Below are positions 14,862 to 28,733 of a stretch of DNA of 32,000 bases, piece by piece. The translations under genes were made by a program, and so were the position numbers. The DNA comes from Propionibacteriaceae bacterium. GTDB lineage: Bacteria; Actinomycetota; Actinomycetes; Propionibacteriales; Propionibacteriaceae. How positions within the stretch are numbered: the first letter of the stretch is position 1; every line of letters begins with the position of its first letter. The stretch is taken from positions 128,830 through 160,829 of the forward strand of contig JAIRQE010000019.1 of NCBI GenBank assembly GCA_031256725.1, given 5' to 3'. Below the pieces are notes generated by a model. That model worked only from the letters and a program-made list of their open reading frames with translations, was not told the origin of the DNA and did no database searches.

Positions 14862-15183
14862 CCTCCTATCGTAGAGGTTCAGTTACTCAGAGCAATCCTC
14901 AGGTTTGTATCGGACTGTGAAAACATGTGCAAGAATCTTCGTTTTCAGCCAAGTCTAGAATCTTGTCACTGTTTTCCACGCTGTGGTGGTCGAATACGGG
15001 AAACAGGTACAACTCTCTCAACCGACCGAAATTCGAGGGGTCATCTGCGATCAGTTGTTGTACGTGGTACCACCCAACTCAAACCTAAGCTCCTAGTGGT
15101 GTGACGATGAATAAAAGACCACATACCCCCTGTTACTAGGGAAAATGGTGATTGTTGTTCTCCGCAAACATAATCGATTGCCC

Positions 15184-15248
15184 CTCACTAATTTCTAGTG
15201 AGTAGTACATCTCGGCATCATTAGTTCCTCATGATTCATAGGAATCAT
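15184..15248. promoter_or_regulatory. Two short palindromes in the leader of the cai/fix-like operon (candidate operators)
   Basis: CTCACTA-ATTTC-TAGTGAG at 15184-15202 and ATGATTC-ATAG-GAATCAT at 15231-15248. Both were checked by hand. They lie about 100-165 bp upstream of ATG 15350. Confidence 0.3.
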
Positions 15249-15349
15249 CACATCTGTGGGATGGGAGAGTGGCTCAGGCCCCGCATCATTGTGGAGAAAC
15301 CCTTCTGGACGACTAGCAATGGCGCCCTGAGAACCACGAAAGGTCCACA

Positions 15350-16747
15350 ATGACACAAGTAAAGGCCTCTTCGACAGAAGAGAAAACTTATAGTCAACTT
15401 AGCGCAGGTCGGCGCTGGTTCCTATTGATCCTTGCCAGCATTGGCAGTTCTATTATTTATGCCCCTGCCTATCTGAAGGCTGTTTTTTACGATCCATTGA
15501 TGCAAGCCCTTGGTGTCACAAACACCCAATTGGGTGCAGTCTTTGGCGCTTATGCCATTACTGCATTGGTCTGCTACCTGCCCTCTGGGATCATCGCTGA
15601 CAAGGTGCGTATGCGTACCCTCTCTAGCGTTGGATTCATTTCAACAGGCATCCTGACCGCAATCTATGCGATGCTTCCGAGCCTGACCGTTCTATATATT
15701 CTGTTCATCTCTATGGGCGTCACAACGATCCTCATTTGGTGGGGAGTTCGGTACAAGCTGGTTCGCTTGGTATCCACAGAAGAGCAGTACCCAAGGAGAA
15801 TAGGTATCTCCTATGGCTTCTATGGTGCAGCAGGTCTCATTATCGGTCTCATCTCAACTTGGGTCGTTACGATGGTTGGCGAAAACCTCAAACTTGGCGT
15901 CTCCATCTACCTGGGCTTCCTCGCTGTTGTGATCACGACGCTGGGTATTCTCTCCTGGATCTTCATTCCCAAGTTCGCTGGCGAAATCAAGACCGATGGT
16001 CAGGGCTTCTCGTTGACAGAGTTCACGAGTGCATTCCGTAACCCCGTGGTATGGATTGCAGCTATCTCACTGTTCTTCGTGTACTTCTACTACACAGGTG
16101 TGACCTACACCACACCGTACCTCACTGGTGTTCTGGGAGCCTCCCTGGTTCTCACCACCATCGTTGCCAACATTCGTACATATGGTATCACTTTGTTGTC
16201 GGGACCGATCTTCGGATACATCTCATCCAAGTTCAAGCCATCCATCACAATTGCTGTCGGCTCAGTATGCTTCGTTGTCGCTTTGGGAGCTATGATGCTC
16301 CTTCCTCCAGGCCCGGCCATGGTCATCGTCGCCTTGGTGCTCGTCGTCGTACTTGGATTCATCGCCAATGGCGCCTTCTCTGTCGTCTCAGCTCAGTTGA
16401 CTGAAGGCAAGGTACCGCTTCACTACTTCGGTGCAGCCACTGGCTTGCTCTCCATCATCGGCTTCCTTCCAGACACCTTCTCCTCGACATGGTTCGGCGC
16501 CATCATGGATGCCGGCATTGACGCATCAGGCAATGTTGGCGCTGGAGCCTACCAGACGATCTTCATGATCCTCATCGGTTCAGCAGTACTCGCGGCCGTC
16601 TTCTCCCTAGTCCTGTACCTCTACCTTCGCAACAAGAAGAACAAGGGTACGGACGAGGTCGCAGATGGTACCTCTGCTGCGGGCGAAGCAGAAGATTCTG
16701 TGAGCAACTCCTCTGACCTCGTTTACGACAACACTGACAACGACTAA
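15350..16747 (+). CDS. MFS transporter (about 12 TM) with an acidic, serine-rich C-terminal tail
   Basis: 465 aa with repeated hydrophobic helices and an MFS loop motif, GIIADKVRMRTL. RBS GAAAGG lies 6 nt upstream. First gene of the operon. Confidence 0.85.
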   Translation: MTQVKASSTEEKTYSQLSAGRRWFLLILASIGSSIIYAPAYLKAVFYDPLMQALGVTNTQLGAVFGAYAITALVCYLPSGIIADKVRMRTLSSVGFISTGILTAIYAMLPSLTVLYILFISMGVTTILIWWGVRYKLVRLVSTEEQYPRRIGISYGFYGAAGLIIGLISTWVVTMVGENLKLGVSIYLGFLAVVITTLGILSWIFIPKFAGEIKTDGQGFSLTEFTSAFRNPVVWIAAISLFFVYFYYTGVTYTTPYLTGVLGASLVLTTIVANIRTYGITLLSGPIFGYISSKFKPSITIAVGSVCFVVALGAMMLLPPGPAMVIVALVLVVVLGFIANGAFSVVSAQLTEGKVPLHYFGAATGLLSIIGFLPDTFSSTWFGAIMDAGIDASGNVGAGAYQTIFMILIGSAVLAAVFSLVLYLYLRNKKNKGTDEVADGTSAAGEAEDSVSNSSDLVYDNTDND

Positions 16748-16759
16748 GAGGTCCCCACG

Positions 16760-17740
16760 ATGACCGCATCCAATAAGCTCAATGTTCTTCAGTTGATCTC
16801 TGATGACATGCAAGCTGTAATCCAGAAGTCAGCAGAACTGGCACCCGATGCCTATGATGTGAATGCTGGTTTGGACTCCATGCGTACCGCCTATAGTAAA
16901 GAACGCGCGTACTGGAATGAAGGCGGACCTGAGGTCCCCTACACGGATGCGGTCATCACCACCTCTCAAGGCGATGTACCTGTTCGCTTCCACACCCCCA
17001 CTCACGAGGTCTCCCCTGCGATTATCTATATCCACGGTGGCGGCTTCATCCTCGGTGGCCTGGATACCCATGATCGCATCATGCGTATCCTGGCTGACCA
17101 AACTGGGGCAACCGTCGTGGGAGTCGACTATTCTCTCTCACCTGAAGCCAAGCATCCTCGCGCACTTCGTGAATGTGTCGAGCTTGCCCAGTACCTTCAC
17201 ACCCATGGGTCGAAGCACGGAATTGATGGGGACTCCATTAGTTTCGCTGGTGACTCTGGTGGAGCCTTCCTGAGCTTGGCTTCCTACCTTTACCTTAAAA
17301 ACGAGGTTGATGGTGCTCGATATATTCAAGCATTGATCCTCTATTACGGACTCTATGGTCTTCGCGACTCAGTTTCACGTCGCCTCATGGGTGGCACCTG
17401 GGACGGATTGACCGAAGAGGATCTGGCTTATTACATGGACTCCTATCTTGCCGATCCGGCTGATGCGCGTAGTCCCTATGTCGACTGCCTGAGCGCCGAC
17501 CTCTCTACAGTACCGCCCTGTTTCATTGCAGCGGCCGAGTACGATCCCCTGATCGATGATTCGGCAGCCCTTGCGGCAGTACTGAGCAAACACGGGCTAC
17601 ACCACCGCTATGTGGTGTATGCCGGTGTTTTGCACGCCTTCCTCCACAATTCCCGCCACCTCGATACCGCTATGGATGCACTCGTCGATGGGGCTCAGTT
17701 CTTCCGTGACCTCGTGAAGAACCCACAAACCTCCCTATAA
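16760..17740 (+). CDS. aes: Alpha/beta-hydrolase, hormone-sensitive-lipase family esterase (Aes/acetyl-esterase-like)
   Basis: Oxyanion motif IYIHGGGFILGGLDTHDRIMR, nucleophile elbow FAGDSGGA, acid DPLIDD and His in VLHAFLH. By eye it is collinear with E. coli Aes as I recall it. Confidence 0.8.
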   Translation: MTASNKLNVLQLISDDMQAVIQKSAELAPDAYDVNAGLDSMRTAYSKERAYWNEGGPEVPYTDAVITTSQGDVPVRFHTPTHEVSPAIIYIHGGGFILGGLDTHDRIMRILADQTGATVVGVDYSLSPEAKHPRALRECVELAQYLHTHGSKHGIDGDSISFAGDSGGAFLSLASYLYLKNEVDGARYIQALILYYGLYGLRDSVSRRLMGGTWDGLTEEDLAYYMDSYLADPADARSPYVDCLSADLSTVPPCFIAAAEYDPLIDDSAALAAVLSKHGLHHRYVVYAGVLHAFLHNSRHLDTAMDALVDGAQFFRDLVKNPQTSL

Positions 17741-17770
17741 ACCACCGAATAAGAAACAAGGAGAACCATA

Positions 17771-18907
17771 ATGGATTTCGCACTCAACGATGAACAACAG
17801 CTATTCGTCGAAAACTTCCGGGAACTCATGGAGCGAGAAAATTGGGAACCTTACTTCGCCGAATGCGACAAGACCCACACCTATCCCGAGCGTTGGGTGA
17901 AGGCCCTATGCGAATTAGGCTTCGATCAGATCATGCTCCCCGAAGAGCACGGCGGCCTCGACCTTGGCCTGGTCACACTGATGTCTGTGTACGAAGAACT
18001 CGGACGCCTCGGCGGCCCGACGTACATCCTCTACCAGCTCCCCTGCTTCGACACCATCCTGCGTGAAGGTACCCAAGAACAGATCAACAAGATCATGGCC
18101 TATGTTGGCACAGGCAAGCAGATCTGGAATAGCGCATGTACTGAGCCTGGTGCTGGCTCTGATGTGGGCAGCCTCCAAACCACCTACACCCGCAAGAATG
18201 GCAAGATCTACCTCAACGGACACAAGACCTTTATCACTTCTTCAGCGAAGGTGCCCTTCCTCGTCGTGATGGCTCGCGATTCCGAGAACTATGACACCTT
18301 CACAGAGTTCTTCTTGGATATGAGCCTCCCAGGCATCAAGATCGAGCCCCTGGAGAAACTGGGTCTGCGCATGGATTCCTGCTCCGATGTCTACCTCGAC
18401 AATGTTGAACTTGATGAGTCCGACATCTTTGGTACAGAGGGCAATGGCTTCAGGCGTGGTATCGGCGACTTCGATCTTGAGCGTTTCCTTGTCGGAGCCA
18501 GCGACTACAGCTCAGCTCTGTGCGCCTTTGAGGATGCAGCCAAGTACGCCAATGTACGCGTCCAGTTCGGTAAGACGATCGGTCGCTTCCAGTTGAACCA
18601 ACTGAAGTTTGCCGAGATGGCAATCAAGCTCAAGGCCATGAAGTACATGCTCTACGAAGCAGCATGGTCCTTCGATCAAGGCGAGATGACCTCTGCTCAG
18701 GCAGCGATGTGTAAGTACTACGGCGCTAATGCTTCCGCAGCAGTCGTTGACGCTGCCATGCAGGTGATGGCTGGTGTTGCTGTTGCTGGCGACCACAGGA
18801 TCCAGCGCATCTGGCGTGATCTTCGCGTTGATCGTGTCTCCGGTGGTACCGACGAGATGATGATCCTCACCCTCGCCAAGGGTGTCCTCAGAGAATACGC
18901 AGCCTAA
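17771..18907 (+). CDS. caiA: Acyl-CoA dehydrogenase family protein, CaiA-like (crotonobetainyl-CoA reductase type)
   Basis: [33 protein letters not shown]..., [35 protein letters not shown] and [23 protein letters not shown] parallel E. coli CaiA block for block (from memory). AAGGAG RBS. Confidence 0.85.
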
Positions 18908-18917
18908 GGAGTTCGCC

Positions 18918-20129
18918 ATGACACTGCCAACACAGAAACCGTCTTTTGGCCCCCTTGACGACGTACGCGTGGTCTATGCAGCCGTAGAACTGGCTGTACC
19001 CAGGGCTTGCTGCCTCATGGCTGAATGGGGTGCAGATGTTACCTGGATCGAGAACACTGGCGCGGGTGACACCATCCGCGACACCGCTTATATTAAGCAG
19101 GCTGAACGCCGTAACCAGCGTTCTGTTGCCCTCAACTATTTCAGCGAAGAGGGTACGGAAGTCCTGCTGAAGATGTTGGAGAATGCGGATGTTTTCATCG
19201 AATCCAGCAAGGGTGGTACCTTCGCAAAGCGCGGAATCACAGATGAGATGCTCTGGGAACACAACCCTAACTTGGTGATCGTCCACGTCTCCGGTTTCGG
19301 CCAAAAGGGTGTACAAGACATGGTCACTCGCGCGGCCTATGACCTCACGGTGATGGCCTATTCGGGGTACATGAGCCAAAACGGCACACCCGAGCAGCCC
19401 ATGAATCCTGGGCCCTACACCGGTGACTACATCAACTCTTTGATGATCCTGTCCTCGACCTTGGCTGCTCTGCATAAGGTGAAGATCACTGGTCAAGGCG
19501 AATCCATCGACCTTGCTATGTTCGAATCCCTGCTCGCCATCGGTCAGTACTATCTCGTTGACTATCTCAACGCGGGAATCATCTGGCCTCGCCCAGGACC
19601 ACGAAACCAGAACCTGTGCGCTATCGGTGAATACCGCTGCTCAGATGGATTCATTGGCCTGTGTGTCTATGGGGTCACCCAGAATAAGTACCTCCTGGAA
19701 GCTATTGGACTGGGAGACCTCTGGGGTAGCGATGACTACCCAGAAGACACCTCGGCCCTATGGCTATCCAGCCCAAAGGCCGAACTCATCGAAGCCAAAC
19801 TCGAAGAGTACCTCTCCACACGGACAGTCGCTGAGGTTGAGAAGGACTTTGCCGCTAACCGAATCGCAGCACAGAAGGTGATGGAGTTCCCTGATCTGGT
19901 TGCTGATGATCATATGAAGGCACGCGACGTCTGGATGGACTGGACCACCGCTGATGGCGAAGAGTTCCACGGCCTTGGTGTCTTCCCGAAGTTCGAGAAG
20001 AACCCTGGTGGAATGTGGCGCCCCATGCCGGCCCAAGGATACGACACCGAGGATGTTCTGCGTCGCATCGGTTACACAGATGAACAAATCGAGCATTTCG
20101 TCGCCACAGGCGTTGCTCTACAGGCATAA
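18918..20129 (+). CDS. caiB: Family III CoA-transferase, CaiB-like (carnitine/gamma-butyrobetainyl-CoA transferase type)
   Basis: FGPLDDVRVVYAAVELAVP...AEWGADVTWIEN, GESIDLAMFESLL and NPGGMWRPMPAQGYDTEDVL resemble CaiB. Start set to ATG 18918 (AAGGA RBS, 10 nt after the caiA stop) rather than ORF-track 18882. Confidence 0.85.
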   Translation: MTLPTQKPSFGPLDDVRVVYAAVELAVPRACCLMAEWGADVTWIENTGAGDTIRDTAYIKQAERRNQRSVALNYFSEEGTEVLLKMLENADVFIESSKGGTFAKRGITDEMLWEHNPNLVIVHVSGFGQKGVQDMVTRAAYDLTVMAYSGYMSQNGTPEQPMNPGPYTGDYINSLMILSSTLAALHKVKITGQGESIDLAMFESLLAIGQYYLVDYLNAGIIWPRPGPRNQNLCAIGEYRCSDGFIGLCVYGVTQNKYLLEAIGLGDLWGSDDYPEDTSALWLSSPKAELIEAKLEEYLSTRTVAEVEKDFAANRIAAQKVMEFPDLVADDHMKARDVWMDWTTADGEEFHGLGVFPKFEKNPGGMWRPMPAQGYDTEDVLRRIGYTDEQIEHFVATGVALQA

Positions 20130-20145
20130 GAAACAAGGAGAAAAA

Positions 20146-20892
20146 ATGAAGATAGTTGCCTCGTTCAAAGTCTCTCCCGAGACCCAAGATATTCAGACCC
20201 GTCCTGATCGCAGTCTCAACCTTGAACGCGCACAGTGGAAGGTTGGCACCTATGACCTCAATGCTATTGAGGCCGCACGCCAACTCGCTGATGAGGTCGG
20301 TGGTACGGTCGTCGGTCTTAGTGCTGGTGGATCAGCCCTCGAGAATGCAAAACTCACCAAGGATGCCCTCTCTCGTGGACTCGACGAATTAGTCACCGTG
20401 GTTGATGAAAACCTCGTGGGTTCTGAGAGTTATCAAACTGCATCAGTCCTGGCCGAGTCCCTCACTGAAATCGGTGACGTGGATCTGGTTCTCGTAGGTG
20501 CTGGTTCCTCAGATGAGTACACCCAGCAGGTTGGAAACCACCTGGGTCAGATCCTGGGATGGCCCACACTCAATGCCATCGAGACTATCGAAGCTGAGGG
20601 TGACCATCTCAAGGTCGAAAGAGTCCTCGAAGATGGCGTCCAAGTCATTGAGGTCCAGCTCCCCGCTGTACTCTCGCTGACCTCTGGCGCAAACACTCCA
20701 AGGATCGCTGGAATGAAAGACATCCTGGCGGCAGGCAAGAAGCCGGTCACCTCGGTTGCTGCTGGTGTACTCCCCTCACCAACAGCCACCCCAGTCTCCC
20801 AGCTTGCTCCCGAGCAAGTTGACCGTCGCCAGATCATCCTCGAAGGCGTGGACGCAGCTGCGGAACTCGCCATCCACCTCAAAGCACTCTAA
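20146..20892 (+). CDS. fixA: Electron-transfer flavoprotein beta subunit, FixA-like
   Basis: MKIVASFKVSPETQDI...YDLNAIEAARQLADE...LPAVLSLTSGANTPRIAGMKDILAAGKKP matches the FixA/EtfB pattern. Start trimmed to ATG 20146 (AAGGAG RBS). Confidence 0.88.
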   Translation: MKIVASFKVSPETQDIQTRPDRSLNLERAQWKVGTYDLNAIEAARQLADEVGGTVVGLSAGGSALENAKLTKDALSRGLDELVTVVDENLVGSESYQTASVLAESLTEIGDVDLVLVGAGSSDEYTQQVGNHLGQILGWPTLNAIETIEAEGDHLKVERVLEDGVQVIEVQLPAVLSLTSGANTPRIAGMKDILAAGKKPVTSVAAGVLPSPTATPVSQLAPEQVDRRQIILEGVDAAAELAIHLKAL

Positions 20893-20901
20893 GGAAGAAC
20901 C

Positions 20902-21795
20902 ATGACAAAGATATGGGTTATTGCACATGATGACACTGTTGCCGCGGATCTTGTCCGCAGCGCGCGAGGATTGGGCTCCTATGTGGGCACAGTCTGCATA
21001 GGCGGTCACGCGGTACCAGGTGCCGATCTGACACTGACAGCACCACAAATACCCGAGACTCTCATTGAAGGCTACTCTTCAGCCATTGCTGAGGTTGTCA
21101 AGGATGGCGACCTGGTTATCTTCAGTACAGACACACAGTCCCGCCTTCTTGCTGGGCTGGTCGCCTCCACACTGAAGACCTCTGTACGCAACATCACCTC
21201 GATCTCGGCTGAGGGTGATACCTTCACCATCACGAGGCCTTTGTACGGTGGTTTGGCTGTGGTAACGGAAACCCTGGGTAGTGGGGCATCTGTACTCGTT
21301 GTCGGACCTGGTGCTCTACCTGAGTATGAAGGCGACCTTCCTTCTGGAGAGGTCAAGGACCTTGAAGGTACGCCGTCCACGCCCGGATTGAAAGTTGTTG
21401 AAACCCGAACCAAGCAGGTCCAGGCAGTCAACCTTGCTGCCGCAAAGCGTGTGATTGGTGTGGGCCGCGGATTCGCCCAGGAAGCAGACCTTGAGATGGC
21501 TCGCGAACTCGCAGCCAAACTCGGTGGTGAACTCGCCTGCAGCCGTCCTATGGCTGAGGGTGTGAACTGGATGCCAGTCGAATGCTACCTCGGAGTCTCC
21601 GGGGCAACCATTAGGCCCGACCTCTACCTCGCCATCGGTATCTCTGGTCAGATCCAGCACATGGTTGGCGTCAACAGATCCAAGGTGATCGTCGCCATCA
21701 ACAAGGACAAGAACGCACCGATCTTCACCCATGCCGATTACGGCGTTGTGGGGGATCTCTACGATGTTCTTCCTGCTCTGATCCAGGCACTATAA
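20902..21795 (+). CDS. fixB: Electron-transfer flavoprotein alpha subunit, FixB-like
   Basis: C-terminal FAD-binding block ELACSRPMAEGVNWMPVECYLGVSGATIRPDLYLAIGISGQIQHMVGVNRSKVIVAINKDKNAPIFTHADYGVVGDL. Confidence 0.9.
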   Translation: MTKIWVIAHDDTVAADLVRSARGLGSYVGTVCIGGHAVPGADLTLTAPQIPETLIEGYSSAIAEVVKDGDLVIFSTDTQSRLLAGLVASTLKTSVRNITSISAEGDTFTITRPLYGGLAVVTETLGSGASVLVVGPGALPEYEGDLPSGEVKDLEGTPSTPGLKVVETRTKQVQAVNLAAAKRVIGVGRGFAQEADLEMARELAAKLGGELACSRPMAEGVNWMPVECYLGVSGATIRPDLYLAIGISGQIQHMVGVNRSKVIVAINKDKNAPIFTHADYGVVGDLYDVLPALIQAL

Positions 21796-21809
21796 AGGAA
21801 GTCATAACC

Positions 21810-23399
21810 ATGGTGGACATTGTTGGTACGACCACATTCCCACAGATGTGGGATGCGGCTGTACGCTGTGCAGGAGACCGAGTCTTCTTGGCCTTCCTGC
21901 ACAGTGATGGTACTCGCCTCGAGTTCACTTATCGAGAATTCGACAAGGTTGTATCACGAACCGTTTCTCATCTGTCCCATCTAGGGATAGGTCACGGCTC
22001 GATGGTCGCTATGCAACTATGCAACTCCCCATGGTTCATATCCTGCCTTATCGGCATCACAAAGCTCGGAGCCATCGCGGTACCAGTAGGCCCAGGTGCT
22101 ACTGGTACCGAGTTGGCCGGGATCTATGCCACCTGTGATGCCCAATGGGCCATCGTCGAGTCCATTCACGTGGACACCCACAAAGAATTACGCTTTCAAG
22201 GATTGATTCGCCACGGAATCATCTGCGTGGATGATCTCGTATCTAACGTGTCAGGGGACGCATATTGTGACACCTCAATTCCTGTAGTGATTGGGGTGTC
22301 ACAATATGCGTCCCCTGACGCTCCGCCCCCTGACACTAGACCAAACACAGGACCAACCAGTGATGACATTGCGGAGGTGATGTTCACCTCGGGCACAACC
22401 GCAGCACCTAAGGGTGTGCTGGTTACCCATGCCAACTTGGTCTACTCAGCTCATGTTGCCACCTGGCAGGCATCGCTGCGACCAGATGATCGTATCTTCA
22501 CGACCATGCCAGCCTGCCACTCCAACTTCCAACTGGTGGCATTAACGGGCGCGATTCTTTCAGGAGCCCGACTGGTCCTTTCCGAGAAGTACTCTGCTAG
22601 CCGCTTCTGGTCCCAGATACGCACCGAAAAGGCAACAGTGATCCAACTGACTGCCATGATGGCTCGTACCCTCCTTCTTCAACCATCGAGTGAAGACGAC
22701 TCCACCCACAATGTGCGGGAGACCTTGTACTTCATGCCTTTGCCTGATGCCGACAAACTGGAGTTTGAGAAGCGCTTCGGCGTGAGGTTCATGAACTCCT
22801 ATGGGTCGACCGAATCCATCTGCTGGGCGCTCACAGACCCACCTGTCGGGGAACGCAAGTGGCCTTCGGTGGGCCGTCCTGCTCTCGGGTACGAGGTCTC
22901 TATTGTGAGCCCTGAGGGTGACCATCTTCCAGCGGGGAGTCTTGGAGAGATCTGGGTGAAAGGTGTCCCCGGTCGTACCCTCATGAAAGGCTACCTGGGC
23001 AACGACCAGGCTACACATGCAGCCTTGACTGAGGACGGCTGGCTGCGTACCTCTGACACCGGATATTACGACGAACAAGGCTGGTTCTATTTCGTGGATC
23101 GGGCCCGCAACCTCATCAAACGTGGAGGCGAGAATATCTCAGCAACAGAGATTGAGACCCTACTCAACTCCCATCCCCTCATCAAAGAGGCCGCCGTGAT
23201 CGGTGTACCCGATCCTGTACGAGACCAAGCAGTGAAAGCCTTTATTCAGCCTGAGTCTGATGCTGAACTGGATACAGCGGATGTCGCATCATTTTGTTCC
23301 ATGCATCTCGCCAGTTTCAAAGTCCCCCAAATAATCGAGTTCGTGGAGGACTTTCCACGAACCGCCTCAATGAAAATCGAGAAGAGATCCCTGAGCTAA
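21810..23399 (+). CDS. caiC: AMP-forming acyl-CoA synthetase/ligase, CaiC-like
   Basis: Adenylate-forming motifs FTSGTTAAPKGV, SYGSTE, TSDTGYYDEQGWFYFVDRARNLIKRGGENIS and PRTASMKIEKRSL. The N-terminus MVDIVGTTTFPQMWD parallels E. coli CaiC MDIIGGQHLRQMWD (from memory). Confidence 0.85.
   Translation: MVDIVGTTTFPQMWDAAVRCAGDRVFLAFLHSDGTRLEFTYREFDKVVSRTVSHLSHLGIGHGSMVAMQLCNSPWFISCLIGITKLGAIAVPVGPGATGTELAGIYATCDAQWAIVESIHVDTHKELRFQGLIRHGIICVDDLVSNVSGDAYCDTSIPVVIGVSQYASPDAPPPDTRPNTGPTSDDIAEVMFTSGTTAAPKGVLVTHANLVYSAHVATWQASLRPDDRIFTTMPACHSNFQLVALTGAILSGARLVLSEKYSASRFWSQIRTEKATVIQLTAMMARTLLLQPSSEDDSTHNVRETLYFMPLPDADKLEFEKRFGVRFMNSYGSTESICWALTDPPVGERKWPSVGRPALGYEVSIVSPEGDHLPAGSLGEIWVKGVPGRTLMKGYLGNDQATHAALTEDGWLRTSDTGYYDEQGWFYFVDRARNLIKRGGENISATEIETLLNSHPLIKEAAVIGVPDPVRDQAVKAFIQPESDAELDTADVASFCSMHLASFKVPQIIEFVEDFPRTASMKIEKRSLS
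22250..22319. repeat. 70-nt near-perfect palindrome (25-bp perfect arms, extendable to about 30 bp) embedded in frame in the caiC-like CDS
   Basis: Left arm GTCAGGGGACGCATATTGTGACACC (22250-22274) is the exact reverse complement of 22295-22319. The inner CAAT/ATTG pairs extend the stem after one T/G position, leaving an 8-10 nt loop. The encoded peptide is SGDAYCDTSIPVVIGVSQYASPD. Confidence 0.9.
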
Positions 23400-23417
23400 C
23401 AAGGAAAGGAATATGCA

Positions 23418-24290
23418 ATGGGTAATATCAATACAGAGATGGTCGGACAGACCTTTGGACCCTTCATTAGGGAGTACACCTTCCGCGATCTGGAGTTGTT
23501 CGCACTCGGGTGCGGCGCTGGGATCGACGGCAAACAGGACCTCATCTATATCAATGAACACGATGAGCGTGATCCGAAGCTTCAGGTACTCCCCATGTAT
23601 GCCGCGATGCTCATCGTTGATTCTGCGGTGACACGCACCATCGACTATGGCTACAACTATGCTGGCTCCCTGCACTGGGGTTTCGACCTGCGTATCCATC
23701 AGCCCATCACGAAGATGGCCGACCGTCTTGAGACGAAGGTACGCCTTGAGGGGCTGTACGACCGTGGCGAAGGCCGTGGACTGCTTGCCCAGCACATTGG
23801 TGACACCTTCGATTCTGAAGGCAACCTGTTGTGTACTAACGAATCATGGGACTGCCTGATCTATGACGGCGGTTGGGGTGGACCCACACCACCTAAGGAT
23901 GTTGTGGACATGCCTGATCGCGATCCAGATCACATCGTCACCGAGACGATCCCCTTCAACCAGGCTCTGATCTATCGCCTCTCGGGCGATTACCACCCCC
24001 AGCACATCGACTGGGACTATGCAGCCCAGAATAATGAGCCTCGTCCGATCCTTCATGCGATCAGCTATGCCGGTGTTGTGATGCGTCACGCCATCTCGAC
24101 CTTCATCCCTGATCAGCCGGAGCGCTTGACGAGGTTCAAGACCCGAATCACCTCACCAGTACACCCGGGTGCCACCCTGGCCACCCACCTGTGGAAGGTC
24201 AGTGACACTGAGGCGCGTTTCATGCTTGTCGAAGCTAATGATCCTCAAGCAAAACCGCACCTCAACTGGGGAATCATCGAGTGGAGCTAA
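23418..24290 (+). CDS. MaoC-like double-hotdog (R)-hydratase/dehydratase
   Basis: 290 aa, about twice a single hotdog domain. A hydratase-2-like motif, YRLSGDYHPQHID (canonical SGDxNPxH), keeps the Asp and His, with Asn replaced by His. RBS AAGGAAAGGA. Confidence 0.75.
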   Translation: MGNINTEMVGQTFGPFIREYTFRDLELFALGCGAGIDGKQDLIYINEHDERDPKLQVLPMYAAMLIVDSAVTRTIDYGYNYAGSLHWGFDLRIHQPITKMADRLETKVRLEGLYDRGEGRGLLAQHIGDTFDSEGNLLCTNESWDCLIYDGGWGGPTPPKDVVDMPDRDPDHIVTETIPFNQALIYRLSGDYHPQHIDWDYAAQNNEPRPILHAISYAGVVMRHAISTFIPDQPERLTRFKTRITSPVHPGATLATHLWKVSDTEARFMLVEANDPQAKPHLNWGIIEWS

Positions 24291-24294
24291 CCCC

Positions 24295-25623
24295 ATGAGT
24301 ACCACCAAGAGCCACGTCATTGATGACGCCGTCATGAACCGTTTCCTGGTTAAGGTCACGGTCTTCTCCTCAGGAGGTTCCTTCCTGGACGGGTACGTAC
24401 TGTCGATCATTGGCGTGGCCTTGGTTGGTCTCACCACATCCCTAAATCTGACCACCTCAGATGCTGCCTTCATTGGCGCAGCCTCACTGGCCGGCATCTT
24501 CTTTGGAGCAATTGTTGGTGGACGTTTGACAGATGCCTTCGGGCGCCGGCTAATGTTCCTTCTCGATGTGTCGCTCATCGGAATCGTCTCAATCGCCTGC
24601 ATCTTCGTAGAGGCACCCTGGCAGTTGATCGTCTTAAGATTCCTGATTGGGTTCTTTATCGGCGCCGATTACCCTATTGCCACCTCGCTGATTGTTGAAT
24701 TCGTACCACGCAAACATCGCGCCATCGGAATGGGAATCGTCTCAGCGTCATGGTACCTCGGTGCAACAGTTGCTGCCTTTGTTGGGTACCTCCTTTACCA
24801 CGTCCCCAACGGATGGCAGTGGATGTTCGCATCCTCCGTCATCCCCTGTATCGCCCTGCTCATTGGTCGACACGATATTCCCGAATCACCACGCTGGCTT
24901 GCACAACGCGGACGTGTAGAGAAGGCGCGCGCGGTCATGAAGAAGGTCTACGGTCAGGAGGTGGATCTTGAAGACGAGATCCCCACCACCAACCTCGGCT
25001 TTAAGCAGGTTTTCACACATGGGTACCTTGGGCGCATCATCTTCTTGGGGATCCTCATTTTGTGTCAGGTGGTGCCGATGTACGCGATGTACACTTTCGG
25101 GCCACGGATCATGGCATCCTTTGGTCTCGCTGAAGGCTCATTATCCATCCTCGGCGAAACAGTGGTCTCCCTCTTCTTCCTCATTGGCTCCATCCCAGCG
25201 ATGTTCTGGTTAAACTCCCTGGGACGACGCCCCCTACTCATCGGCTCTCTTGGACTCATGGCTGTGGGTCTGTTGATCCCCGGTATCGCTCCAGGGGCTC
25301 CGATCATCGTGATCATCATTGCTTTTGGACTCTATGCCTTCTTCTCTGGTGGACCTGGGATCCTCCAGTGGTTGTACCCCAATGAGCTCTTCCCAACTGA
25401 GGCCCGCGCAACTGCGGTTGGTGTGGCCATCGCGATCAGCCGTATAGGTGTGGTCGCCTCAACGTACGGATTACCTCTCTTCCTCGAATCCTATGGAATC
25501 GGCCCAACGATGTTGATTGGTGCTGGGCTTCTCCTGATTGCCCTCGTCATGTCGATATTCATGGCTCCCGAAACCCGAGGGATGACGCTATCCGAAGCAA
25601 GTTCACTTCATACGAAAGGATGA
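24295..25623 (+). CDS. yaaU: MFS transporter, sugar-porter/metabolite:H+ symporter type, YaaU-like
   Basis: Motifs GRLTDAFGRRLMF, IPESPRWLAQRGRVEKA, GADYPIATS and PETRGMTL. By eye it is collinear with E. coli YaaU as I recall it. Start trimmed to ATG 24295, 4 nt after the MaoC stop. Confidence 0.82.
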   Translation: MSTTKSHVIDDAVMNRFLVKVTVFSSGGSFLDGYVLSIIGVALVGLTTSLNLTTSDAAFIGAASLAGIFFGAIVGGRLTDAFGRRLMFLLDVSLIGIVSIACIFVEAPWQLIVLRFLIGFFIGADYPIATSLIVEFVPRKHRAIGMGIVSASWYLGATVAAFVGYLLYHVPNGWQWMFASSVIPCIALLIGRHDIPESPRWLAQRGRVEKARAVMKKVYGQEVDLEDEIPTTNLGFKQVFTHGYLGRIIFLGILILCQVVPMYAMYTFGPRIMASFGLAEGSLSILGETVVSLFFLIGSIPAMFWLNSLGRRPLLIGSLGLMAVGLLIPGIAPGAPIIVIIIAFGLYAFFSGGPGILQWLYPNELFPTEARATAVGVAIAISRIGVVASTYGLPLFLESYGIGPTMLIGAGLLLIALVMSIFMAPETRGMTLSEASSLHTKG

Positions 25624-25628
25624 TAGTA

Positions 25629-26915
25629 ATGGCTGACTTTGATGCCATTGTGGTGGGATCGGGCTGTGCGGGCCCGGTAGCTGCCCATGAATTAGCCACA
25701 CGAGGCAAGAGTGTCTTGGTGATTGAGCGAGGAAACTTCGCTGGTGCCAAGAATGTCTCAGGTGGGCGTTTGTATACCCATGCTCTGCGAGAGGTCTTCC
25801 CGAACTTCCGCGATGATGCCCCCCTGGAGCGTCGGGTGGTACGTGAAAGAATCTCGATGCTGGAACCCGAAGCGGGACTGACCATCGAGTTCTCTGATGA
25901 ACAGATGAGGGATGAATCCCAGGATTCCTACACAGTACTTCGGGCACAATTCGATCCGTGGCTAGTTTCACAAGCCGAAGCTGCTGGAGCAGAGTACATC
26001 CACGGAATCGCGGTCGAATCCCTGATCAAGGATGGAAACCGGGTCACTGGTGTCAGTGCTGGTGGGGATGAGATCAGCGCAGATGTGGTGATCCTCTGCG
26101 ATGGGGTCAACTCTCTTCTCGCCGAACAAGCAGTGGGTACTCCTCGCCCATCTCGCTCCTCAGTTGCTGTGGGAATCAAGCAGGTCATCGAATTGGATGA
26201 GCATGTCATTAATGAACGCTTCACCTGTTCATCCGATGAGGGTGCAGCCTGGCTGTTCATGGGTGATGCCACCCATGGTCACGTTGGCGGTGGCTTCCTG
26301 TACACCAATAAGAATTCGATTTCTTTGGGTCTGGTTGTCACTGTGGCAGACATGGTTGAAGCCGACACAACCATCGCTCAACTCTTGGAGGATTTCCGCC
26401 AGCATCCAGTGATTGCCCCTGTCATCGCAGGTGGTGCAGTGGTCGAACATTCTGGACATCTTGTTGCCGAGGGTGGGTACAACGCTTTGCCTACCCTGAT
26501 TGGCGATGGTGTCATGCTTGCTGGTGAATCGGCCATGATGTGTCTCAACGCCGGATATACCGTCCGTGGAATGGATCTTGCCATCGCCGCAGGGATGCAC
26601 GCCGGTCGTAGTGCAGCCACAGCCCTTGATAATGGGGACACCTCATCAAAGGGGCTTGGTTCCTATGTGAAAGCCCTCGAAGACTCCTTCGTCATCAAGG
26701 ATATGAAGACCCTGCGTCGCTTCCCGGATTTCATGGAACACACCCCCCGGATGTTCTCCACCTATCCTGAGTTGGCTTGTTCACTGGCCCGCCAGATGTT
26801 CCTCGTTGATGGTACCCCCATGAAGCCGGTACGCAAGAAGGCCTGGCCCCTACTGAAAGACGTCGGCCTATTCAACCTTCTCAAAGATGCTCGTAAAGGA
26901 GTGAAAGCGTTATGA
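25629..26915 (+). CDS. fixC: FAD-dependent ETF-quinone-type oxidoreductase, FixC-like
   Basis: FDAIVVGSGCAGPVAAHELATRGKSVLVIERGNFAGAKNVSGGRLYTH (dinucleotide fold) and GGFLYTNKNSISLGLV match FixC. AGGA lies 8 nt before ATG 25629. The alternative ATG 25620 overlaps the MFS stop (ATGA). Confidence 0.88.
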   Translation: MADFDAIVVGSGCAGPVAAHELATRGKSVLVIERGNFAGAKNVSGGRLYTHALREVFPNFRDDAPLERRVVRERISMLEPEAGLTIEFSDEQMRDESQDSYTVLRAQFDPWLVSQAEAAGAEYIHGIAVESLIKDGNRVTGVSAGGDEISADVVILCDGVNSLLAEQAVGTPRPSRSSVAVGIKQVIELDEHVINERFTCSSDEGAAWLFMGDATHGHVGGGFLYTNKNSISLGLVVTVADMVEADTTIAQLLEDFRQHPVIAPVIAGGAVVEHSGHLVAEGGYNALPTLIGDGVMLAGESAMMCLNAGYTVRGMDLAIAAGMHAGRSAATALDNGDTSSKGLGSYVKALEDSFVIKDMKTLRRFPDFMEHTPRMFSTYPELACSLARQMFLVDGTPMKPVRKKAWPLLKDVGLFNLLKDARKGVKAL

Positions 26916-27211
26916 GTACACTCAAACCAATTACCGTGAATGTTGATGCCTACCTTGGCCTAAACAAGTACGAAGTAGATGAAGGAAACCCACATATCGA
27001 GGTTGCTCCTGAGCCTGAAACAGAACTCTTCAAGGAACTAGTACGTATATGCCCAGCTGGGTTGTACAAGATGGATGGGGATCAACCCATGTCCGTTGAC
27101 TTCGCTGGATGCCTAGAATGCGGCACATGTCGCATAGTCGGCGCCGGTGCAATCATCGCCTCATGGCGATATCCGTCAGCCACTATGGGCATAGAGTACA
27201 GGTACGGCTAA
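26912..27211 (+). CDS. fixX: Ferredoxin-like protein FixX
   Basis: CPAGLYK...DFAGCLECGTCRIVG...YPSATMGIEYRYG parallels E. coli FixX. ATGA overlap with fixC. Confidence 0.9.
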   Translation: MSTLKPITVNVDAYLGLNKYEVDEGNPHIEVAPEPETELFKELVRICPAGLYKMDGDQPMSVDFAGCLECGTCRIVGAGAIIASWRYPSATMGIEYRYG

Positions 27212-27305
27212 AACCTTGGGAATACTCTCAGCTCCATCCTTGTTCCATCATTATCAATACAGATTACAATTGAAATAGGTATTCAAAATCTCGGAGGGGA
27301 TGGAG

Positions 27306-28733
27306 ATGACTACAGCACAGGGACGATCTGTCTTGGATAGGCTCGTCGACGATTCACGGATGAAATACCTCGGGTTAGTCTTAGTACTCACCTGGCATTA
27401 CACCCTGTGGTTCGTTCCGACGGCCTTTCCAGCAACCTTCCTCTTGGATGACCGAATCACCTTCGGATGGCTCACCGCGCTGACGTGTACTGTAATCACC
27501 ACGGTCGCCCTTGCCCTCGCTCTTGGGAGAACACGGCATCTCCCCCAGTCCGGATGGCTCCTTTGGACAGTTTCTGGTCTCGGGTGTGTCGCAACCTTGA
27601 CACTCACTCTTGGATGCGGCACAACCCGAGGCCCACTCATTTGCTATCTAGCAAGTGCCCTTATTGGGATCTGCGCGGGATTTCTATGGGTCATGTGGGG
27701 TGAAAGGTATGCCTGTCAACGAGCCCAATTCACCATGGGTCGTCTGGCACCCGTCTACGGGATCGTCCTCCTTGCAGGGTTGATAGCGGTCTACCTCCTT
27801 CCAGGTATCCTTGCCCCGATTCTTGTCTGTCTCATGCCTGTCACCTCTGGGCTGCTTCTCAACCTCAGTTGGCGCAAGTCACAATCGGTGAGCTTTCCTC
27901 CGATCCTCACCAGGAACACCACCCGTCATGCGACCCTCAGCATCGTCATAGTGTGCCTCATCTCTTTCATCGTGGCCTATGTCAGCTACTTCGTGGTGGC
28001 GATCGTACCCTGGGAGGATCTGTGGGGTGTCGAACGAAGCTTCACCTTCGGAGTCGGTATCGGGGCAATACTCATCCTGGTTATTGGCCTTGCCCATGCC
28101 CGACTACAGGGGAAAACCACGATCTTCAAACTCTTCCCCTGGATCCTACTATTCTCCCTTGTGGCATGCCTGTTATGCCTATCATCCTATCCGGAAGATT
28201 TCACAGGATTCCTTCTTGCCCTCACCGCATCCTCGGTTCTCGAAGTCCTAGTGATCATGTATATGGCACGTCTGACTCTCAGCGGCTATACCCCTTCCGC
28301 AACAGCCTTCGGCATGAGTGCAGCAGCCATCCGATTCGGGATACTTCTCGGCAATGGTACCGCTCTCATCTATGAACGCATTCCAGGATTCCAAGACCTG
28401 TGGACCCAACCAACCCTGCTGGTTTTCGTTGTTGTCCTGGCTGGCCTTCTCATTCCTTTGGTACGACAGGAGTACTCCATTAACGACCTCACTGTTGCCC
28501 CTGTGGATGCCTCACAGTGGAGTACCACCCTTGAAGGAATCAGCAAACAATTCCATCTGTCTGCACGCGAGACTGAGATTCTTGAACTCTTGGGCCGCGG
28601 ATACACCGCCACTGCCGTAGCCGAAAAACTCATCATCTCCCCCCACACAGTCAACACCCATGTTCAACACATCTACGAAAAGATGGGAATCCATCGCCGT
28701 TCTGAACTCTTGGACTATCTCAATAAAGGTTAG
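27306..28733 (+). CDS. Membrane-embedded LuxR-family transcriptional regulator (about 12 TM N-terminal domain plus C-terminal LuxR HTH)
   Basis: About 400 aa of successive hydrophobic helices, then LSARETEILELLGRGYTATAVAEKLIISPHTVNTHVQHIYEKMGIHRRSELLDYL (GerE/LuxR HTH). GGAGG lies 8 nt before ATG 27306. The alternative ATG is at 27300. Confidence 0.85.
   Translation: MTTAQGRSVLDRLVDDSRMKYLGLVLVLTWHYTLWFVPTAFPATFLLDDRITFGWLTALTCTVITTVALALALGRTRHLPQSGWLLWTVSGLGCVATLTLTLGCGTTRGPLICYLASALIGICAGFLWVMWGERYACQRAQFTMGRLAPVYGIVLLAGLIAVYLLPGILAPILVCLMPVTSGLLLNLSWRKSQSVSFPPILTRNTTRHATLSIVIVCLISFIVAYVSYFVVAIVPWEDLWGVERSFTFGVGIGAILILVIGLAHARLQGKTTIFKLFPWILLFSLVACLLCLSSYPEDFTGFLLALTASSVLEVLVIMYMARLTLSGYTPSATAFGMSAAAIRFGILLGNGTALIYERIPGFQDLWTQPTLLVFVVVLAGLLIPLVRQEYSINDLTVAPVDASQWSTTLEGISKQFHLSARETEILELLGRGYTATAVAEKLIISPHTVNTHVQHIYEKMGIHRRSELLDYLNKG

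Follow-up and report, generated by a model that had tools for sequence, protein, structure and literature searches.

Aes-type esterases at the head of actinobacterial carnitine gene clusters are probable acyl-carnitine hydrolases

A 32,000-nucleotide stretch of DNA from a Propionibacteriaceae bacterium (GenBank assembly GCA_031256725.1, contig JAIRQE010000019.1, positions 128,830 to 160,829 of the forward strand; hereafter the window, with positions counted from its first letter) carries a cai/fix-like carnitine gene cluster, which is headed by the genes for a major facilitator superfamily (MFS) transporter, here called MFS1 (15350-16747, + strand), and a serine esterase of the hormone-sensitive lipase (HSL) family (16760-17740, + strand), followed directly by caiA. 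The esterase is probably a cytoplasmic O-acyl-L-carnitine hydrolase which widens the substrate range of the actinobacterial carnitine-respiration operon. This reading is the best supported because the transporter-esterase pair is conserved and co-inherited with the cluster, because the same pair is associated with acyl-carnitine loss in Propionibacterium freudenreichii, and because the acyl-carnitine hydrolases HocS and ACH provide precedents from other carnitine operons. The cluster-linked esterase is, moreover, an orthologue of the esterase Aes of Escherichia coli.

Under the proposed mechanism, short- to medium-chain acyl-carnitines derived from the animal host or from food would enter the cell, most simply via MFS1. 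The Aes-type esterase (Ser166/Asp262/His292, HGGG oxyanion hole) would then cut the 3-O-ester to yield a fatty acid and free L-carnitine. Carnitine would be activated by CaiC and CaiB, the coenzyme A (CoA) ligase and transferase of the pathway, and dehydrated by a MaoC hydratase standing in for CaiD, and CaiA would reduce crotonobetainyl-CoA with electrons passing through the electron-transfer flavoprotein (ETF) and FixCX, giving gamma-butyrobetaine. In this scheme, what the esterase cleaves, what MFS1 carries and in which direction, and the co-transcription of the genes are inferred. An earlier note on this DNA, made from the sequence alone, had proposed that an ester is imported, de-esterified and fed into the Cai/Fix pathway; regarding de-esterification and feeding this is the reading favoured here, in view of the conserved pair and the association in P. 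freudenreichii, and MFS1 is a candidate for the importer.

The esterase comprises 326 amino acids and matched PF07859 (Abhydrolase_3, E = 9.8e-50) with 169.7 bits against a gathering cut-off of 25, over residues 88-295. The arrangement described in the earlier note was confirmed in the sequence: an MFS gene and an HSL esterase gene stand directly upstream of caiA, with a gap of 12 bp (16748-16759) between MFS1 and the esterase and of 30 bp (17741-17770) between the esterase and caiA, and all four motifs are present in the translation, namely HGGGF (residues 92-96), GDSGG (164-168), DPLIDD (with Asp262) and His292 within VLHAF. A hydropathy scan found no hydrophobic segment (no signal peptide, no transmembrane helix) in the esterase, which therefore is predicted to be cytoplasmic.

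Regarding its closest characterised relatives, the esterase scored 432.1 bits against the NCBIfam acetyl esterase equivalog NF007547 (cut-off 389), spanning model positions 1-318 of 321. The closest solved structures were those of Aes from Salmonella and E. coli (PDB 3GA7 and 4KRX, E about 1e-90). Compared with Aes of E. coli K-12, the identity was 47% over 318 residues (E = 1e-90). The two proteins were reciprocal best hits, aes being the only E. coli K-12 match of the esterase, and the 2.1-Mb genome to which the window belongs contains one true Abhydrolase_3 gene. By sequence comparison, the esterase is thus classified as a full-length orthologue of E. coli Aes, and an identity of this level to solved structures fixes its fold. 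The identity of this pair lies in the same range as that of the other cai/fix orthologues of the window and E. coli, which was 69% for CaiA, 45% for CaiB, 39% for CaiC, 43% for FixA, 36% for FixB, 50% for FixC, 53% for FixX and 48% for the second transporter of the cluster, MFS2, and its counterpart YaaU. In E. coli K-12 the cai operon indeed lacks an esterase, as the earlier note states for enterobacterial cai operons; this strain has aes as an unlinked orthologue, a lone gene with hemH and gsk as neighbours, about 0.46 Mb away from cai/fix.

An alignment of 65 Aes-type sequences (including the esterase from the window and E. coli Aes) with 18 other actinobacterial HSL esterases was used to determine the residues which set the subfamily apart. 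H92-G-G-G, Ser166 and Asp262 were invariant across the 65 Aes-type sequences, and His292 was present in 98% of them. Fourteen more positions were invariant or nearly so in the Aes-type sequences and rare or absent in the 18 others (window numbering: Y45, R49, W52, A169, Y196, G197, R208, W214, D215, G216, D221, D267, L271 and H296). In the HSL architecture, residues of about 1-60 and 190-235 build a cap above the active site. By inference only, the conserved aromatic, acidic and basic residues of this cap would fit a zwitterionic substrate carrying a carboxylate and a trimethylammonium head, and Y45, R49, W52, Y196, R208, W214, D215, D221, D267 and H296 could form the pocket for the natural substrate of Aes.

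Conservation of the head of the cluster was determined at two ranges. Among 60 relatives, the esterase, MFS1, CaiA and the MaoC hydratase were confined to the same 4 genomes; the four genes are adjacent in three of these (G001, G015 and G033) and lie on separate short contigs in the fourth (G014), and the esterase gene is directly upstream of caiA wherever the assembly allows this to be seen. For the wider comparison, the MaoC hydratase served as the anchor, yielding 80 loci from species-representative genomes and 6 from a sample of the phylum; all twelve proteins of the window cluster were mapped on these loci, and counts were taken on the 70 loci whose sequence covers the upstream side of caiA. 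The esterase was intact in 64 of these loci, split in two (L031, L089) and absent from four (L021, L085, L095, L100). It was always encoded on the strand of caiA, at a median distance of 56 nt (maximum 179 nt) between the esterase and CaiA alignments. It had been asked whether homologous clusters generally lack the esterase, and with 64 of 70 loci intact they do not.

The loci belong to Propionibacteriaceae and Propionicimonas, to Cellulomonas, Actinotalea and Oerskovia, to Sanguibacter, to the Actinomycetaceae genera Schaalia, Pauljensenia, Peptidiphaga, Trueperella, Arcanobacterium, Winkia, Varibaculum and Flaviflexus, to metagenome-assembled genomes (MAGs) of Bifidobacteriaceae, to one Dormibacterota MAG and to a family recorded as f23. 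Protein clusters named from Eggerthella lenta MAGs and Berryella shared 72-84% identity with the f23 esterases, which makes Eggerthellaceae the most likely assignment of this family, and esterase homologues also occur in Gordonibacter and Raoultibacter. The loci with the most similar MaoC hydratases were those of Propionibacteriaceae MAGs from termite guts. A separate protein cluster (P0082; 86 members, 118 contigs) holds an esterase homologue which is 55% identical to that of the window and whose nearest named relatives are from Raoultibacter and Gordonibacter; the organism behind it has been sequenced often, and one of its members is mislabelled as Chlamydia trachomatis, which suggests a human urogenital or skin actinobacterium.

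To assess the specificity of the association, 401 evenly sampled Actinomycetota genomes were screened. HSL esterases in general (E <= 1e-30) were common, being found in 107 of these genomes (a tally which includes the unpublished genomes G180 and G328, on which no other result given here depends). Only six genomes yielded matches above the Aes cut-off, at 394-469 bits, the next best match scoring 174 bits, and in all six the gene lies directly upstream of a CaiA orthologue. This score gap and the uniform linkage to caiA indicate that the Aes subfamily is discrete and, in the sampled Actinomycetota, restricted to cai clusters. One further genome of the sample carries the cluster without the esterase. 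The co-occurrence of aes-like with cai/fix genes for which the earlier note had called was thus found in six of six cases in this sample and in four of four among the 60 relatives.

The esterase tree follows taxonomy, with support of 100 for a clade made up mostly of Actinomycetaceae (38 rows, besides one from a Bifidobacteriaceae MAG and two unassigned) and of 93 for f23. For pairwise identities, the Spearman coefficient was 0.72 between the esterase and CaiA, 0.70 between the esterase and CaiB and 0.80 for the CaiA-CaiB pair, and in a Mantel test none of 999 permutations reached the observed value. Mean identity was 54% for the esterase versus 72% for CaiA. Tree and correlations together indicate that the esterase has long travelled with the cluster while evolving faster than the core genes; since kin share their history, the correlation speaks for co-inheritance but does not alone establish a function. 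The four losses of the esterase fall in four taxonomic groups whose other sampled members have it, and look independent. As the rest of the cluster is kept in these cases, the esterase is dispensable for the core cycle, which is what a substrate-feeding step predicts.

The same losses can be viewed in another way, namely that the protein is a general short-chain acetyl or carboxyl esterase like Aes, with a housekeeping, detoxifying or protein-binding regulatory role, which merely travels with the cluster. Four lineages do without it, its name and its model score are those of an acetyl esterase, and E. coli Aes is unlinked to cai and known for its binding of MalT and alpha-galactosidase. This explanation is nevertheless considered quite unlikely, given that Aes-type genes in the sampled Actinomycetota and in the relatives occur only directly upstream of caiA, and that this position is kept through divergence to about 43% identity, which is hard to explain without a role in the pathway.

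Regarding the nature of the ester, association data have been published. Roder et al. 2024 (Genome Biol 25:93; PMC11007987) applied a microbial genome-wide association study (mGWAS) to yogurts made with 44 P. freudenreichii strains. Strains with an MFS plus hydrolase gene pair deplete acyl-carnitines, especially octanoyl- (C8) and decanoyl-carnitine (C10), and in them carnitine and putative gamma-butyrobetaine build up; standards confirmed carnitine and its acetyl, hexanoyl, octanoyl and decanoyl esters, five of the metabolites in the association, and import of a precursor with carnitine fermentation was proposed for the cluster 'from the MFS transporter to fixX' (PMC11007987). The earlier note was therefore mistaken in its belief that no genetic description of this link existed, the same gene pair having been tied to acyl-carnitine loss in that study. 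It named acetyl-carnitine as a candidate substrate; the associations in P. freudenreichii indicate the C8 and C10 esters at least as much.

It is unlikely, by comparison, that a different ester feeds the cluster, be it a carboxyl ester of carnitine, crotonobetaine or gamma-butyrobetaine, or an O-acyl ester of another 3-hydroxy betaine-like acid, the substrate of the pathway being only carnitine-like. Such a possibility is suggested by CaiC, which scored below its equivalog cut-off (584 versus 651 bits), by the replacement of CaiD by a MaoC hydratase of opposite usual stereospecificity, and by the presence of the cluster in Cellulomonas, Actinotalea and Oerskovia, which are not host-associated. 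Against it, both CaiA and CaiB of the window scored above carnitine-specific equivalog cut-offs, and the standards-confirmed metabolites of P. freudenreichii are carnitine and acyl-carnitines (PMC11007987). A chlorogenic or feruloyl ester feeding a caffeate-type reductase, as suggested by the combination of acyl-CoA dehydrogenase, ETF, CoA-transferase and ligase, was also considered and was rejected because CaiA and CaiB pass these carnitine-specific cut-offs and because the published metabolites are carnitines.

Some alpha/beta hydrolases show thioesterase activity, and the esterase gene adjoins genes for CoA-dependent enzymes, so that the protein might be thought to hydrolyse the CoA esters of gamma-butyrobetaine or carnitine, either as a safety valve or to release the product. 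This is highly improbable: CaiB recycles CoA and CaiC re-activates the substrate; ATP would be wasted by a free thioesterase; every solved relative found among HSL-family and Aes proteins is an oxygen-ester hydrolase; and the phenotype in P. freudenreichii is the loss of acyl-carnitines (PMC11007987).

Several observations weigh against acyl-carnitine hydrolysis as the role of the esterase. The published support comes from an mGWAS of 44 related strains. In these, loss of the pair goes along with decay of the entire cluster, so that the share of the esterase itself cannot be told apart from that of the pathway. Among characterised relatives the closest is E. coli Aes, for which only short-chain acetyl or carboxyl esterase activity and inhibition of MalT are on record (PMC2805673). 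Co-occurrence counts are inflated by kinship and by transfer of whole clusters; about 13 of the 64 intact loci are near-identical Trueperella-like copies, and at identity thresholds of 90% and 70% the 65 esterase sequences collapse into about 50 and 27 groups, respectively. Finally, several hosts of the cluster are Cellulomonas and Actinotalea from soil or sediment, for which a supply of acyl-carnitines is less obvious.

MFS1 (465 amino acids; Pfam MFS_1, E = 1.3e-26) has about 11-12 hydrophobic segments according to a crude hydropathy scan and is a candidate importer of acyl-carnitine and/or carnitine. Its best match in E. coli is only YqcE (28%), and it has no E. coli orthologue. MFS1 precedes the esterase in the 64 intact loci and is kept in all four clusters which have no esterase. 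On this pattern, the view put forward in the earlier note that it imports the ester is not supported; MFS1 would be the likeliest route of uptake. In a genome of the same genus, the MFS1 orthologue (G001:C22:30233-31546) is broken by one in-frame TGA, which could reflect a pseudogene or a sequencing error. In the E. coli K-12 region 2888000-2904000, YqcE adjoins the uncharacterised ygcNOPQRSU set, which comprises a third group of FixC/FixX/ETF paralogues and the MFS protein YgcS.

The cluster as a whole consists of 11 closely spaced genes on the + strand (15350-27211), with the gene for a LuxR-type regulator 88 bp further on. It is preceded by a non-coding leader (14862-15349, + strand) without an open reading frame, presumably a promoter or regulatory region; scans for sigma-70 and terminator consensus sequences gave matches at or below chance (as judged from shuffles) and have no bearing on co-transcription. 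All further genes are likewise on the + strand. Downstream of the esterase follow a CaiA-like crotonobetainyl-CoA reductase (17771-18907; NF002885, 698 bits versus a cut-off of 540), a CaiB-like carnitine CoA-transferase (18930-20129, start approximate; NF002914, 666 bits versus 413), the ETF beta and alpha subunits (FixA/FixB-like, 20146-21795; Pfam ETF and ETF_alpha) and a CaiC-like betaine-CoA ligase (21810-23399; NF005947, 584 bits versus 651). The place of CaiD is taken by a double hot-dog MaoC hydratase (23418-24290; Pfam MaoC_dehydratas and MFE-2_hydrat-2_N), which is kept across the related loci. It is followed by MFS2, a YaaU-like MFS transporter (24295-25623; Pfam Sugar_tr), and by a FixC-like and FixX-like ETF-quinone oxidoreductase and ferredoxin (25620-27211; NF007450, 498 bits versus 466; Fer4_ETF_QO). 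Neither a CaiD crotonase nor a CaiT antiporter was found in the window cluster, which has the MaoC hydratase and the two MFS genes instead. MFS2 also matched the organic-cation-transporter model TIGR00898 and could be a second carrier, for carnitine or gamma-butyrobetaine.

The LuxR-type protein (27300-28733) is membrane-anchored, with a C-terminal GerE domain, and is likely to be the regulator of the cluster. A homologue borders the cluster in most of the related loci. In the window and in four of the closest Propionibacteriaceae relatives (L017, L018, L028, L029), its gene is placed downstream of fixX; in most other Propionibacteriaceae, Cellulomonas and Eggerthellaceae-like loci a homologue is found upstream of MFS1 in divergent orientation, and none was detected across the Actinomycetaceae loci. 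Two layouts of the fix genes were observed. In one, that of Propionibacteriales and Cellulomonas, caiB and caiC are separated by fixAB, and MFS2 is followed by fixCX. In the other, seen in Actinomycetaceae, one or more unidentified genes separate MFS2 from a more divergent fixABC(X) set (32-47% identity), found 1-2 kb downstream. Single loci showed further variation. That of Actinomyces marseillensis (L070:1291-7177) contains a tandem duplication in the order MFS1, esterase, partial CaiA, esterase, CaiA. An Eggerthellaceae-like locus (L102; G389:C9:570000-589999) encodes the esterase, CaiA, CaiB, CaiC and MFS2, with no detectable MaoC hydratase in the interval from CaiC to MFS2.

Among host metabolites acyl-carnitines are abundant, and in inflammatory bowel disease their level in the gut lumen goes up; the conversion of carnitine to gamma-butyrobetaine is the first step toward trimethylamine (TMA) and its N-oxide (TMAO). 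The esterase and transporter front end is not peculiar to dairy propionibacteria but is a conserved module of cai clusters in numerous Actinobacteria that live in association with hosts (Schaalia, Trueperella pyogenes, Arcanobacterium haemolyticum, Winkia, Varibaculum and relatives of Eggerthella and Gordonibacter). Surveys which count only the enterobacterial caiTABCDE genes therefore would miss organisms able to use the acyl-carnitine pool. New here are the conservation of the MFS-esterase head in no fewer than five actinobacterial families, with human and animal pathogens and Eggerthellaceae-like gut genomes among the carriers, the identification of the esterase as an Aes orthologue, and the restriction of the Aes subfamily to cai clusters among the sampled Actinomycetota.

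Aes (esterase B) has for decades been known only through synthetic substrates and its binding of MalT. A possible but doubtful extension of the present findings is that enterobacterial Aes is the missing acyl-carnitine hydrolase of the Enterobacteriaceae. The suggestion is based on the identity of 47% between Aes and the cai-linked esterase, which is on a par with that of CaiB, FixC and YaaU (45-50%), on the Aes-specific invariant Tyr, Trp, Arg and Asp residues common to both in the presumed cap over the active site, and on the occurrence of the subfamily only inside cai clusters in the sampled Actinomycetota. If it is true, aes would feed the cai/fix respiration which promotes growth of E. 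coli and Citrobacter on gut acyl-carnitines. Lemons et al. 2023 explicitly left unidentified the enzyme which turns acetyl-carnitine into carnitine in Citrobacter rodentium (PMC10694575), and Aes is a concrete candidate for this role in the Enterobacteriaceae.

Among known systems, E. coli Aes (b0476, PDB 4KRX) resembles the esterase of the window over its full length, with the triad Ser165/Asp262/His292, the HGGG motif and the 14 signature residues in common. It differs in being monocistronic, and its partners MalT and alpha-galactosidase have no counterpart in the window. The E. coli caiTABCDE and fixABCX-yaaU operons share with the window orthologues of CaiA, CaiB, CaiC, FixABCX and YaaU, and yaaU adjoins fixX. 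The window, in contrast, has no CaiT, CaiD, CaiE or CaiF, forms one operon instead of two divergent ones, and has MFS1, the esterase, the MaoC hydratase and the LuxR-type regulator as additions or substitutions.

Cytoplasmic acyl-carnitine hydrolases are encoded by hocS (PA5384) in the caiX-cdhCAB-hocS operon of Pseudomonas aeruginosa (PMC5806209) and by ACH (HMPREF0010_01348), annotated as an alpha/beta hydrolase (PMC9162365), in the carnitine operon of Acinetobacter baumannii (PMC13631058). Compared by their descriptions, both resemble the window esterase in being encoded within carnitine catabolic operons, and they free L-carnitine from short- or medium-chain acyl-carnitines. PA5384 may be a lipolytic enzyme of the GDXG type. 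Unlike the window esterase, HocS and ACH feed aerobic pathways (carnitine dehydrogenase; CntAB monooxygenase) instead of the CoA-dependent reductive Cai pathway, and uptake is by an ABC or BCCT system instead of an MFS transporter.

The closest counterpart is the P. freudenreichii cluster, which is from the same family and is known here by its description; neither the 80 retained loci nor the 240 protein matches listed included a P. freudenreichii sequence. Gene content and order match as described (PMC11007987): an MFS gene and an adjacent gene for an alpha/beta-hydrolase-fold protein form the head, one gene from the carnitine CoA-transferase, and the cluster has caiABC, an enoyl-CoA hydratase for caiD, a second MFS gene for caiT and fixABCX, ending at fixX. 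The product name used by Roder et al. 2024 is also given by sources to PF07859 members of the present esterase family; Aes orthology and conservation across the phylum were not noted in that study. The window differs in its genus, in the position of fixAB between caiB and caiC and in the LuxR-type regulator downstream. The window cluster is thus a further member, from another genus of Propionibacteriaceae, of the cluster type reported in 2024.

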